A model generated the notes under the pieces. It was given only the letters and a program-made list of their open reading frames with translations, was not told where the DNA came from and did not search any database. The translations under genes and the position numbers were made by a program. Shown here piece by piece: positions 24,947-37,869 of a DNA stretch of 64,000 bases (its first letter is position 1; each line of letters starts with the position of its first letter). The DNA comes from a phage: sequence record PQ724393.1, one strand, 5' to 3'.

Positions 24947-25306
24947 TTAAAGATGGTCGAGTGCCGGATTATGAGGCTTTTCTGCTTTAGCAGTATTTTT
25001 GTGCCAATCCGATTTAGAAACACGAATTGCATCCGCACCGTAAGAGCTCTTAAGGAGGCCCTTTTTATTGTAAACACTTATAGAAGTAAGGGTGTCACCA
25101 TTCCAAGTAGCATGGACGAAGTTGGATTTAGATTTAAGTTCTTTAGCCAGGCTCTGGTTGGTAGCCATAGAAGCAAAGTCTTTACCTGTAACTTTAAAAA
25201 CTTCAGATGGGTTCAGCCCTTCTTTAGCCTTAGCCAATTGTTCAGGAGACATAGCTTCGTTAATGCGCTGAGTAGATTCAGTAATAAATTGTTGGTAAGT
25301 TTTCAT
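24947..25306 (-). CDS. Internal-protein-like head protein with capsid targeting sequence (119 aa)
   Basis: N-terminus MKTYQQFITE-S matches the T4 IP capsid targeting sequence ([10 protein letters not shown], prohead protease cleavage after Glu of [IL]-x-E). Confidence 0.6.
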   Translation of the reverse strand: MKTYQQFITESTQRINEAMSPEQLAKAKEGLNPSEVFKVTGKDFASMATNQSLAKELKSKSNFVHATWNGDTLTSISVYNKKGLLKSSYGADAIRVSKSDWHKNTAKAEKPHNPALDHL

Positions 25307-25348
25307 ATTATTCCTTAAGTTGATAGAAGTATTCTACCACGGATTTAA

Positions 25349-25765
25349 TTAAGCGTAAATAGCCTTGCCATAGTGTTTGTACCAGGTAGGACGTTGTGCA
25401 ATTTTTTCATCCAAACGGGTTTGTGAAATAGCGATAGAAGCTTCGTGAGGAGCATAATCACCACGGAATTCCTGAGGAATATCACTAATGTCCTGGACCG
25501 TAGTATCTTTGATATTAAAGCCACGTTTTAAACATTCGGCTATAAGCTCGATTTGACGCTTACGTAAAAATTCAAGCTTATCGTAAAAGAATGTAACATG
25601 GCCTGCGCCAAGGATAAAAGTAGGACTGATTTTGAAATCACGGACACGTTTACCATTAGCAACATGCTTACGAACTGCACCGAAAACACGTGGTAATTCA
25701 CGATATTCAGCCATTAAGTGTTGGTCAGCCAATTCAGATACTAAGGTAAGGTTGATACGAGTCAT
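25349..25765 (-). CDS. denV: Endonuclease V (pyrimidine dimer DNA glycosylase) DenV
   Basis: 138 aa [41 protein letters not shown]...; essentially matches T4 endonuclease V as I recall it. Confidence 0.9.
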
Positions 25766-25822
25766 TTTTAATCTCCTGTAGTTGATAGGTCTATAGTATC
25801 ATGTCTACAGGAGATGTAAACA
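25766..25822 (-). promoter_or_regulatory. Early promoter / stem-loop cassette
   Basis: Identical to 23430-23486 copy over ~55 nt; immediately upstream of denV ATG. Confidence 0.6.
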
Positions 25823-25845
25823 ACTTTTATCAAGTATCGGCTTTA

Positions 25846-26442
25846 TTAATTACCACGGGCTGCATTAGCAACGGCGTAAGCGTACTGAACATTAGCGTCT
25901 TTAAACGTACCTTTAGAGGTATCTATTTCTGCCTTAAAGCCACCTTTAGCCATAACATCAGCAAATTCTTTACGGAAAGCCATTGCATCAAGACCTTTCC
26001 ATGATGATTTGTGCTTGGCAAATTCAAGACCGGCGAAGTTGACAGCCTTAGCCAATTTATTATCAATAGTCCATTTACCTGCTTTAGGTACAACTACCGG
26101 GCCTTTTTGTTTAGAGAACAGTTTTAAATTCCAGCGACGAAGGTCGCCGTCAGCTTTAACAAAAGCTGCGTCCAAGTTACTAGCAACAACATCCTGAATA
26201 TGGCCAAATTTAAGCCCATCAGCTTCAATATTTAGGTCGTTACGCCAGCGAAGTCCTTCCCAGGCGAAAGCTTTAAAGTCAGAAGCTTTTGTAGCTAAAT
26301 ACCGTTCAATAGGAGCTGTTTTAGCGTCAAAACCATTTCCTGGGTTGTCAACGCCATTTCCTCGGTAGGTCCACTCATCTTTATTAATGCCTTGGACCTT
26401 TCCTACAGAAGCTTCGGCGATAAATTCTTTATACGTTTTCAT
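25846..26442 (-). CDS. Internal-protein-like head protein with capsid targeting sequence (198 aa)
   Basis: N-terminus MKTYKEFIAE-A; between denV and e, where T4 has ipII/ipIII. Confidence 0.6.
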   Translation of the reverse strand: MKTYKEFIAEASVGKVQGINKDEWTYRGNGVDNPGNGFDAKTAPIERYLATKASDFKAFAWEGLRWRNDLNIEADGLKFGHIQDVVASNLDAAFVKADGDLRRWNLKLFSKQKGPVVVPKAGKWTIDNKLAKAVNFAGLEFAKHKSSWKGLDAMAFRKEFADVMAKGGFKAEIDTSKGTFKDANVQYAYAVANAARGN

Positions 26443-26525
26443 ACGGGTTCCTTAAAGGTAAATATTTTAATTAGTCTGTTCAATTAACTGTAGATATACT
26501 ATCACAATTCTAGGAGATGTAAACT
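26443..26525 (-). promoter_or_regulatory. Early promoter-like cassette (diverged)
   Basis: GTTTACATCTCCTAG...TAGTAT on coding strand, SD AAGGAA before ATG 26442. Confidence 0.45.
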
Positions 26526-26529
26526 GCTT

Positions 26530-27018
26530 TTATCTATAAGCGGCCCAAGTACCTGTTTTAAATGTTGAAATCACGCGCTTAGCACGGTTAGGGGTTTGCT
26601 TGTACCAACGAGATTGAGCCAGGTTAACTGCCGCATCGTTCCAACGTTTCTGTTGGAGCATACGTAAAGAGTTAGTGAACCCTGCTACACCTGCTTCACC
26701 CATTTGGAAGACCATGTTAATTAAAGCACAACGACGAACTTCATCGAGCACATCATAAACAGGTTTCAATTTAGGATTACGCAGAATAGCTCTACGAGCA
26801 TTATCAACCGACCGGTTAAAGAGTTGTTCTGCTTCAGCCATAGTAATACGACCATTACAAACTCGACCCATAAGCTTATCAAGTTCAGCGCGGGCAACAT
26901 CTTTAGATGGGTTCTTGGTAACTAACTGGCCAATACCAATAGTCCAATAACCTTCAGTGTCTTTATAAAGATTTAAATCAAGACCTTCGTCTTGACGTAA
27001 CATATCAAAAATATCCAT
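26530..27018 (-). CDS. e: Lysozyme (endolysin) e
   Basis: 162 aa [31 protein letters not shown]...; T4 lysozyme catalytic region (E, D, T) conserved. Confidence 0.9.
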
Positions 27019-27048
27019 AATACCTCCTGAGTATAGGAGGTATTTATA
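27019..27048 (-). promoter_or_regulatory. Late promoter TATAAATA plus SD-sequestering hairpin for gene e
   Basis: Coding strand TATAAATA-CCTCCT-ATACTC-AGGAGG-TATT-ATG; first arm between promoter and start, SD is the second arm. Confidence 0.65.
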
Positions 27049-36219: not shown

Positions 36220-36224
36220 TTAAT

Positions 36225-36491
36225 TTAAATTACAAATCCAGCAGGGGCATTATCATCTTTAGCCATGTGCTGAATTGTATGATAAGTCATTTCTTCAGGA
36301 GCAACCAGATAAGCCGCAACGTTAACTAGTGGAATTATTTTTGGTTTAGCGAACGTGCTATCAGAAATTGCCATAAAGGGCTCGCCGTCGGTCTCAACTT
36401 CGCCAAATTGGCACTCGTAAGAAATAGAACAACGTTTGGTGGTGGTTGTCTTGGTTTTAGGGTCATAAAAAGCTAATTTTAATACTAACAT
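36225..36491 (-). CDS. Hypothetical protein (88 aa)
   Basis: ORF directly downstream of tRNA cluster. Confidence 0.45.
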   Translation of the reverse strand: MLVLKLAFYDPKTKTTTTKRCSISYECQFGEVETDGEPFMAISDSTFAKPKIIPLVNVAAYLVAPEEMTYHTIQHMAKDDNAPAGFVI

Positions 36492-36669
36492 AATACCTCA
36501 AATAAAATTAAGTAAAGTAAGTTTGATTAATAGACCTTGTCTATTATGAAAGGCTCTTTGAGGGAAGAACCTTTGGTAATAGAGGGTTACTTAATAATGT
36601 TAGAGTAATAATATCACATTACTCTTAAAGCATATTACTATTTTTAGGAATAGTCTGGTCAAATTTGAT

Positions 36670-36960
36670 TCATTGTGGCCACATATTAATGTAATCAAGT
36701 TTAATAGAAGCAATCTTCAAAGGATTTTTAAAGATGTCGTATTCGACCAATCCATTTTCAGTTGCAGTATAAAAAGTAAAATTAACAGAATTATAACGAT
36801 GACTGTTAACTTTGAGTTTAACGTCGCTTGAACTACGGCCAATATTAACCTGTTGAACATCAAGCACGGCATCTTTGCCAAAGTTGCGAATCAGTAGCTC
36901 TGCTGCAACCTGGTCCGAATTATAGCCATTCTCTGGATTAGTAACTTTAACGTATAGCAT
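36670..36960 (-). CDS. Hypothetical protein (96 aa)
   Basis: ORF. Confidence 0.45.
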   Translation of the reverse strand: MLYVKVTNPENGYNSDQVAAELLIRNFGKDAVLDVQQVNIGRSSSDVKLKVNSHRYNSVNFTFYTATENGLVEYDIFKNPLKIASIKLDYINMWPQ

Positions 36961-37341
36961 TTAACCCTCGTCTACAATAGTGTGGGTATTGGCATTAACA
37001 ATCTGCCACCAGTCAAAACGATTGGAACCATAACAAGGCTTATTCTCGTTTTCTTTAATGATATCGCGCAGTTCATCTTCAGTCGCTGCCTTTGCGATTA
37101 AGTCAGCATAACCGCCACGAGGATAATAGTTATCACCGGCAAAGAGCAAAAAGTTTGTTTTGATATTCTTGAATTCTTCAAGAGTAATAACTGTTCCGCC
37201 AGGTTGAACAATATCTATATAACTATATCCTAATTTCTGTGCTTCATTTACCGCTTCGAGCAGGGTGTCGTGTGCCCACCCAATTTGGCAATCTGGTTTT
37301 TCAGATGGATTTGCTTGATAATCCGCATACACTTTATACAT
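36961..37341 (-). CDS. Hypothetical protein (126 aa)
   Basis: Start at MYKVYADYQ (ATG 37339-37341). Confidence 0.45.
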   Translation of the reverse strand: MYKVYADYQANPSEKPDCQIGWAHDTLLEAVNEAQKLGYSYIDIVQPGGTVITLEEFKNIKTNFLLFAGDNYYPRGGYADLIAKAATEDELRDIIKENENKPCYGSNRFDWWQIVNANTHTIVDEG

Positions 37342-37342
37342 T

Positions 37343-37528
37343 TTACTCACCTTTAGAGATTTTATCCATAACGAAAGAAATTGAACCAATTAAGAATGCC
37401 ACTACTAAAGAAATTATATTCTCGGAAGTTGAAAGCATATCGAGCATGAATCCTGCAAACATACTAAAGCCGAAAGCAGTAACAGCGGCCAGTGCAGTAA
37501 CATTTCTAATTAATTCACAACGTTTCAT
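37343..37528 (-). CDS. Hypothetical small membrane protein (61 aa)
   Basis: Start ATG 37526-37528 with SD GGAGAATAAA; hydrophobic. Confidence 0.4.
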   Translation of the reverse strand: MKRCELIRNVTALAAVTAFGFSMFAGFMLDMLSTSENIISLVVAFLIGSISFVMDKISKGE

Positions 37529-37595
37529 TTTATTCTCCAATCACTCATTTGTTTTGATAGGGCTATAGTATCACCACTAAAGCCCGTTGTAAACA
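37529..37595 (-). promoter_or_regulatory. Early promoter / stem-loop cassette
   Basis: GTTTACA at 37588-37594; core ttgatagggctatagtatca; 5'UTR shared with the copy at 29231. Confidence 0.5.
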
Positions 37596-37596
37596 C

Positions 37597-37869
37597 TTAT
37601 TTTAGATAAATTGCGTATTTTTTATAACCAGCCGTCTCGTGGCGCAGCCCTTTTTCATTAGCAAAACGTTCAATATTGTTAATTTGATTCTGGTCTAGTT
37701 CTGAAGTATCAAATACAAAAAAGTTTCGCTTATTGCCTAAAGTTACGTGATTAGTCAAATCGATGTTATAGAGATGATTTATATTATCAATCATGGTCTT
37801 AACAGATTTGTTAATTTTTACTTCTTCATTAAGAATAGATTCAGCGATAAATTCTTGATAGGTTTTCAT
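37597..37869 (-). CDS. Internal-protein-like head protein with capsid targeting sequence (90 aa), at the ipI locus
   Basis: N-terminus [11 protein letters not shown] identical to the T4 IP targeting sequence; immediately downstream of 57B as ipI is in T4. Confidence 0.6.

Follow-up and report, generated by a model that had tools for sequence, protein, structure and literature searches.

Four small genes with the T4 capsid targeting sequence in a Dhakavirus genome: a probable set of internal head proteins

Why should four genes whose products otherwise have nothing in common begin with the same ten-residue motif? The question is raised by a 64,000-nucleotide stretch of phage DNA (sequence record PQ724393.1; hereafter the window), in which four minus-strand open reading frames (ORFs), referred to here as genes A to D, start with MKTY[QKN][QE]F[IL][TA]E. 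This start recalls the capsid targeting sequence (CTS, or tag) of the internal proteins (IPs) of phage T4. An earlier reading of the sequence (the original prediction) proposed that the four proteins are packaged in the head and injected, and that their function is undescribed. The analysis presented here indicates that genes A-D are probably the IP set of a JS98/JS10-like T4 relative, packaged in the head, injected with the DNA and directed against host defence. The four genes are:

24947-25306, minus strand: gene A, 119 amino acids, starting MKTYQQFITE followed by S; family PHROG 3966.
25846-26442, minus strand: gene B, 198 amino acids, starting MKTYKEFIAE followed by A; IpIII/Ip3 orthologue.
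35148-35612, minus strand: gene C, 154 amino acids, starting MKTYNEFLTE followed by Q; family PHROG 2280.
37597-37869, minus strand: gene D, 90 amino acids, with a tag identical to the T4 IPII/IPIII tag; Ip9 orthologue.

These ORFs are present at the positions originally predicted and are the only ones in the 64 kb with such a start. When the tag was searched for as a degenerate DNA pattern with up to two mismatches, four sites were found, all of them the starts of genes A-D, and the same pattern gave no site in 100 dinucleotide-preserving shuffles. Looser protein patterns that included GTG and TTG starts added a single chance ORF of 21 amino acids. The CTS, MKT[YF]xEF[IL]xE, is located at the extreme N-terminus of all four proteins, with Gln at position 6 in A. 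The function of this sequence in T4 has been probed in detail: foreign proteins can be loaded into the head by means of the first ten residues of IPIII alone (PMC9026906, PMC3012670), amber-suppressor mutagenesis of IPIII assigned residues 4 and 7 to targeting and residues 8 and 10 to processing (PMC9026906), and the gp21 prohead protease cleaves after the Glu of L/I-x-E (PMC9026906, PMC3012670). Tyr4, Phe7, Ile/Leu8 and Glu10 are retained in each of the four proteins, identifying the motif as the T4 capsid targeting sequence, complete with both its targeting and its cleavage determinants.

The original prediction allowed that the motif might instead be an artefact conserved at the DNA level around the initiation region. 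Comparison of the ten tag codons among genes A-D shows that 13 of the 28 pairwise codon differences are synonymous. This synonymous variation at the wobble positions indicates that it is the peptide that is constrained, not a DNA element of the initiation region, ruling out the artefact. Beyond the first 10-20 residues no similarity among the four proteins was detected, in agreement with the proposal that their bodies are mutually unrelated. The mature parts are small (9.4-20.6 kDa) and have isoelectric points (pI) of 9.5 (A, about 109 residues), 9.6 (B), 9.5 (C) and 8.0 (D), compared with 9.0-9.7 for the T4 IPs. Furthermore, wherever members of families A, C and D were found in T4-like phages, they keep the tag. 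A scan of IMG/VR with the tag DNA pattern, for which chance matches were estimated from the information content of the pattern at well below one, returned at least 150 tagged ORFs of 51-358 amino acids with at least about 49 unrelated bodies. Judged from these sequence features, the products of genes A-D are very probably packaged in the head.

The window belongs to a Dhakavirus (Tevenvirinae), a JS98/JS10-like relative of T4 with 39% G+C; over positions 24500-38500, the identity is 98.7% to Escherichia phage fDHCT2 and about 92% to JS10. The genes for the prohead protease and the scaffold lie outside the window, and in fDHCT2, the nearest relative used in their place, gp21 and gp22 are 89% and 77% identical to their T4 counterparts. 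By the T4 scheme, each IP would be synthesized in the infected cell and would bind, through its first ten residues, to the prohead's gp22 scaffolding core. The gp21 protease would then cut past Glu10 of the L/I-x-E site, leaving the basic mature protein in the head alongside the DNA. In T4, a few hundred copies of each IP are present per head. Following injection together with the DNA, the mature protein would meet the first host nucleases in the cytoplasm ahead of any phage gene expression. Among phage molecules, internal proteins come into contact with host immunity first.

The general idea that tagged genes of this kind encode IPs is textbook for the field, having been established in 1994-2007 and extended in 2022-2025, and two of the four proteins already have names. 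According to later papers that cite it, the work of Repoila et al. in 1994 found many ip genes by means of the signal sequence (cited in PMC12373910, PMC3012670). Over its full length, the product of gene B shares 87% identity with T4 IPIII (E 8e-129), and it matches phrog_5341, annotated 'internal virion protein' (E 1e-114). Gene B occupies the T4 ipIII position between e and denV and resembles T4 IpIII/Ip3 in its tag, cleavage site, locus and early-promoter arrangement (GTTTAC...TGTGATAGTATAT before ipIII in both phages). It differs from T4 IpIII/Ip3 by Q5K in the tag, by an insertion of 5-6 residues near the mature N-terminus and by having no ipII as its neighbour. T4 IPIII is required on strain ECOR17 and is active in the cytoplasm without its tag when expressed by the host (PMC9391042), and studies of 2022-2025 demonstrated that Ip3 inhibits the two-gene GmrSD type IV restriction enzyme of ECOR17 (PMC9391042, PMC12373910), the inhibition having been shown for the T4 allele. 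Ip1, Ip2 and Ip3 are each active against a single GmrSD subtype and do not cross-protect (PMC12373910). By analogy with T4 Ip3, gene B would most likely inhibit a two-gene GmrSD enzyme.

The product of gene D is 78% identical over its full length to 'Ip9 [phage RB15]' (Q38376) and matches phrog_7673, 'internal head protein' (E 2.9e-56); the gene is annotated ip9 in VR5, VR7 and VR26. The Ip9 proteins of RB15 and the VR phages are 78-96% identical to that of gene D and share its ipI-locus position and its tag. What sets gene D apart in this comparison is the overlap seen in the window between its start codon and the stop codon of 57B/Acb1 (ATGA, 37866-37869), which suggests translational coupling of an injected protein with the anti-CBASS (cyclic-oligonucleotide-based anti-phage signalling system) nuclease. 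In T4, 57B and ipI are 73 nucleotides apart and ipI has its own promoter. Consequently, the description of the bodies as unrecognized and without described function fails for B (Ip3, whose role is published) and for D (Ip9, named in 1994), and stands for A and C, which are uncharacterized.

Due to its position, gene D was also considered as a homologue of T4 IPI*, which inhibits the GmrSD of strain CT596. The two have a common locus and belong to the same class of small tagged, cleaved and injected proteins, yet they show no similarity past the first residues, and the IPI propeptide comprises 19 residues (MKTFKEF...ITE); homology of the mature parts was rejected. T4 IPII/Ip2, which inhibits GmrSD/BrxU of ECOR21, is of the same class and bears the same tag, and its slot adjoins gene B; the protein is absent from the window and present in fDHCT2. 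A third comparison is with Bas37_0260 of phage KarlGJung, equivalent in length and locus position to 'IpVI' of phage PST, which shares the tag, the class and the ipI locus with gene D. This tagged ipI-locus protein blocks McrBC (bioRxiv 10.1101/2025.11.20.689424), but it has no homology to A-D beyond the tag, and identity of any of the four with this type of McrBC inhibitor was likewise rejected. No homologue of mature IPI, of IPII, of Bas37_0260, 0261 or 0243, or of the JS10 slot proteins was found in the window. In Yersinia phage PST (KF208315), tagged genes at 2427-2900 and 10117-10684 are named ipIV, ipV and ipVI (Krisch-lab annotation), indicating that IPs are numbered ad hoc from one group to the next.

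Genes A and C are the two really uncharacterized members of the set, and they are ordinary members of a class recognized by its tag. Gene A matches phrog_3966 of 'unknown function' (E 5.5e-26). Homologues were found in 90 phage records: 13 share at least 90% identity with A, and the other 77 are RB69-like, at about 35% (RB69ORF123c). The family comprises only two 50%-identity clusters among 1.84 billion representative proteins. A word-indexed protein search with A found one homologue only and yielded no useful alignment or structure model. A HMMER scan of the same representatives with mature A gave two weak hits outside the family, an RTX giant protein and the repeat-rich C-terminus of a helicase, both judged to be driven by repeats, and the sole match in the PDB (9hnh) is a short low-information stretch of what looks like a designed repeat protein. 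Gene A also contains a second I-N-E site, at residues 15-17.

Gene C matches phrog_2280, likewise of 'unknown function' (E 5.7e-53), and has homologues in 511 phage records from Dhakavirus, Mosigvirus and Tequatrovirus; T4 itself has none. The CTS is conserved in all members of the family, and among the cluster members listed those with names are all 'hypothetical' or a generic equivalent. The AlphaFold2 (AF2) model of C (predicted local distance difference test score, pLDDT, 75) has a three-helix domain (residues 13-67), a disordered Lys/Ala/Pro linker and a long helical hairpin (85-151), for which the fold matches were generic helical hairpins and coiled coils with no functional lead. PST 'IpIV' is 157 amino acids long and was considered as a counterpart on account of its equal length; the similarity is confined to the tag, refuting the identity. 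Two cluster representatives of the C family are frameshifted or truncated past about residue 95. Members from Tequatrovirus start MKSYAQFLNEAVLNEA, with two consecutive L-N-E sites (residues 8-10 and 13-15), suggesting alternative propeptide lengths. The homologue in Bas37 is bas37_0244 (74% identical), which adjoins bas37_0243 (MZ501089, 7029-7592), a tagged protein of 187 amino acids with no homologue in the window. The latter was scored 'Essential' in the HIDEN-SEQ supplement (1 of 48 TA sites hit), a surprising score for an internal protein.

The gene order around the four genes is T4-like: vs.8, denV, ipIII, e, nudE ... e.6, e.8, rnaC/rnaD, tRNAs, trna.2-4, the ipI slot, 57B, 57A and 1. 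The landmarks that place genes A-D are:

25349-25765, minus strand: denV (endonuclease V), in a region with 91.6% DNA identity to T4.
35649-35998, minus strand: homologue of T4 rnaC/rnaD (species 1 and 2 RNA), 91.8% identical to T4 70825-71174.
36063-36219, minus strand: tRNA-Arg(tct) and tRNA-Met(cat), the context of gene C.
37866-38321, minus strand: orthologue of 57B/Acb1 (anti-CBASS nuclease), 85% identical to T4 57B.

The original prediction placed two of the genes on either side of denV at the ipII/ipIII position. This is correct for B, which fills the T4 ipIII slot, and not for A, which lies beyond denV, in the interval that separates vs.8 from denV and is without a gene in T4. The window has no gene in the slot that ipII occupies in T4 between denV and ipIII; the slot here measures 63 nucleotides. 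Gene C is indeed near the tRNA cluster, directly downstream of the rnaC/rnaD homologue at a position where T4 has no gene; no Rfam family covers the rnaC/rnaD region at 35649-35998. Gene D was rightly assigned to the ipI position, between trna.4 and 57B as is T4 ipI, and T4 57B is Acb1 (PMC9117128). The slots of A (vs.8/denV) and C (e.8/rnaC) are variable, with other tagged genes there in related phages, and genes A-D all lie in or beside known IP loci. The view that the IP genes form a known hypervariable anti-restriction set is supported.

The variability of these slots was examined by comparing the window with fDHCT2 and T4 using blastn. At the site of gene A, homology to fDHCT2 (97%) ends at 24895 and restarts at 25277, and the 30-nucleotide CTS stretch at 25277-25306 is common to both phages, indicating that the tag was kept and the body replaced exactly past codon 10. 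The segment concerned is:

24896-25276, minus strand: swapped cassette body, gene A past codon 10 plus its 3' flank, with no homology to fDHCT2.

At this site fDHCT2 encodes a different tagged protein of 99 amino acids. Between denV and ipIII, fDHCT2 has a 387-nucleotide ipII cassette with a product 91% identical to T4 IPII, and JS10 has another tagged protein of 132 amino acids. The apparently 'empty' 650-nucleotide gap between trna.4 and 57B in JS10 (EU863409, 15413-16064) contains two unannotated tagged ORFs of about 69 and 97 amino acids, one of them starting VKSYKEFLTE. An IMG/VR contig (positions 487-2523) carries five tagged genes in a stretch of roughly 2 kb, arranged as e, IP, denV, IP, ipIII, A-like; as this order is unlike that of T4 and the window, cassettes also appear to move between slots.

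A 56-nucleotide repeat family, D1, is present in five copies between 24 and 39 kb (25782-25837, 26485-26540, 29257-29312, 34939-34994 and 37554-37609). Each copy carries a minus-strand promoter-like site of the T4 early type (GTTTACA ... TG.TACTAT) and stem-forming sequence, and three copies lie at the borders of genes B and D:

25782-25837, minus strand: D1 repeat between ipIII and denV, filling the empty ipII slot; promoter-like TTTACA-16-TACTAT.
26485-26540, minus strand: D1 repeat upstream of ipIII; TTTACA-16-TAGTAT with TG.
37554-37609, minus strand: D1 repeat at the 3' end of gene D, upstream of the trna.4 homologue; TTTACA-17-TACTAT with TG.

The D1 repeats resemble the published promoter-early stem-loop (PeSL) shuffling elements; for T4 and PST the early-promoter consensus is TTTACW-N17-TAYWAT, and such elements have been proposed to mediate shuffling (PMC4122927). 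The IP genes are exchangeable cassettes in which the tag and the flanking early-promoter repeats persist and the bodies are swapped between related phages.

This exchange bears on a different account of the set, in which A, C and D are packaged but serve a structural or physical role: neutralizing the charge of the packed DNA, assembling the prohead core, controlling head size or helping DNA ejection. The basic pI of the mature parts (8.0-9.6) and the generic coiled-coil-like matches of C, a helical-hairpin protein, are in line with such a role, as are the increased formation of polyheads by T4 IPIII mutants and the co-purification of IPs with gp22 (PMC9026906). The wholesale swapping of bodies, and their differing presence and absence, between phages that are 98.7% identical is better explained by accessory genes in an arms race than by assembly factors. 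In addition, the T4 IPs are non-essential, and all three of them, together with one further tagged protein, proved to be restriction inhibitors. A purely structural role for A, C and D is unlikely on this evidence.

The promoters raise a further alternative, that at least one of A, C and D escapes packaging and acts only as an early cytoplasmic protein, the tag being left over from recombination at a shared 5' end. Two promoter-like sites, in addition to those within the D1 repeats, are relevant here:

25331-25359, minus strand: early-type promoter-like site before gene A, TTTACG-17-TAGAAT with TG; consensus match only.
35641-35648, minus strand: late-promoter-like AATAAATA, 36 nucleotides upstream of gene C, one mismatch from the T4 late promoter TATAAATA; pattern match only.

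Early-type promoters thus precede A and B, and D appears to be coupled in translation to 57B/Acb1, as expected of early proteins; in addition, IPIII functions when expressed without its tag, and the body of D exists in tag-less form. The AF2 model of D (pLDDT 80) has an alpha-beta-beta-alpha-beta-beta arrangement. A tag-less D body constitutes a 72-amino-acid gene (51% identity) in a non-structural gene block of the 44.5-kb phage SHAK7858 (OR594183, 2507-2725), and the C-terminal 77 or so residues of gp130, a 683-amino-acid protein without a Pfam domain in the Agtrevirus ChubbyThor (OL615013, 692-2743), are also a D body; in BFVD, a 535-amino-acid viral protein carries the domain as well. These occurrences suggest a mobile domain able to act without packaging. 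Against a leftover tag, the amino acid sequence of the tag is kept through synonymous changes and across families and genera, and the T4 tag, to which that of D is identical, packages foreign proteins on its own. The proven IP genes of T4 have the same promoter arrangement, as ipI, ipII and ipIII carry GTTTAC...TAnnAT early promoters like those before A and B. It is therefore very unlikely that any of A, C and D stays outside the head.

If the proteins are packaged and injected, what would they act on? Every tagged IP of known function blocks a specific type IV restriction enzyme, making each uncharacterized IP a handle on host defence. An anti-defence role for A, C and D is put forward tentatively, at slightly short of an even chance. 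Within such a role, and by analogy with the T4 proteins, A and C would most likely each inhibit, in a subtype-specific manner, a host enzyme directed against modified phage DNA, whether GmrSD, McrBC or a comparable first-line defence, and the target of D (Ip9) would most plausibly be another first-line nuclease. A bolder version is possible but doubtful: that A (PHROG 3966) and especially C (PHROG 2280) are unrecognized internal proteins in two further IP slots (vs.8/denV and e.8/rnaC), that they inhibit defences beyond GmrSD and McrBC, and that the body of Ip9 is a captured cytoplasmic domain.

Injected effectors need not be aimed at DNA-directed defence. T4 heads also package Alt, an ADP-ribosyltransferase that acts on the RNA polymerase of the host and modifies it, and by the same logic A, C or D might serve host transcription or translation takeover or the exclusion of competing phages. 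The N-terminal three-helix domain of C gave faint, sub-threshold helix-turn-helix-type Pfam matches, and no GmrSD target has been found for Ip9, both of which would fit. However, no enzymatic domain was found in any of the four proteins and no enzymatic motif in A, C or D, and scans of all four proteins against Pfam, NCBIfam and PADLOC returned sub-threshold noise only. Since the tagged IPs of known function are all restriction inhibitors, such other aims are considered most unlikely.

Several observations weigh against the interpretation of genes A-D as packaged, injected anti-defence proteins. In a study of GmrSD inhibition, ip4-10, which by numbering should include Ip9, gave no reproducible inhibition across the panel of GmrSD variants (PMC12373910), a result that would also suit a structural role. 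The same can be said of bas37_0244, the homologue of C, which is non-essential, had no fitness effect in the one host comparison available and is absent from the hits named in the main text of that study (bioRxiv 10.1101/2025.11.20.689424). In gene C, Gln follows the cleavage Glu in place of Ala or Ser and an internal L-K-E is present at residues 105-107, suggesting that its processing may differ. Fold and family searches for A, C and D returned no functional hint, and sequence searches of the PDB gave no genuine match; structure prediction had been suggested as a check on the mature parts, and the AF2 models of C and D with the subsequent fold searches provided no functional clue. A literature search turned up no virion proteomics covering this lineage or families A and C. 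Finally, a canonical late promoter TATAAATA is missing from the sequence directly upstream of A, B and D. This last point carries little weight, as T4 ipI, ipII and ipIII also lack TATAAATA directly upstream, and it was dismissed as an argument against packaging.

The interpretation as an injected anti-defence set remains the probable one, and its practical gain is modest. Two widespread 'hypothetical' families should be annotated as internal proteins, one gene should be annotated Ip3 and one Ip9, and two extra IP slots become visible. A, C and Ip9 are candidates for screens that pair phage genes with host range or defence systems, which is relevant to choosing and engineering T4-like phages for therapy.

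The strategy ascribed here to the tagged proteins has parallels in other phages. The DarA, DarB and Hdf proteins of P1 and the ejection proteins of SPN3US and phiKZ-like phages, whose propeptides are removed by proteases, share the logic of being loaded into the head, processed, delivered with the DNA and acting first, whereas their targeting signals, proteases and proteins are unrelated to those of A-D; this comparison is drawn from the literature only.

One further feature of the window lies between the two groups of tagged genes. Five tandem small ORFs of 65-96 amino acids, weak paralogues of one another, occupy positions 31335-32597 on the minus strand (31335-31559, 31569-31799, 31809-32006, 32016-32297 and 32307-32597) and are hypothetical in fDHCT2 and JS10. 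All five products end, at the extreme C-terminus, in W-x-(x)-S-S-(x-x)-C, in which the W, both S residues and the C are invariant.

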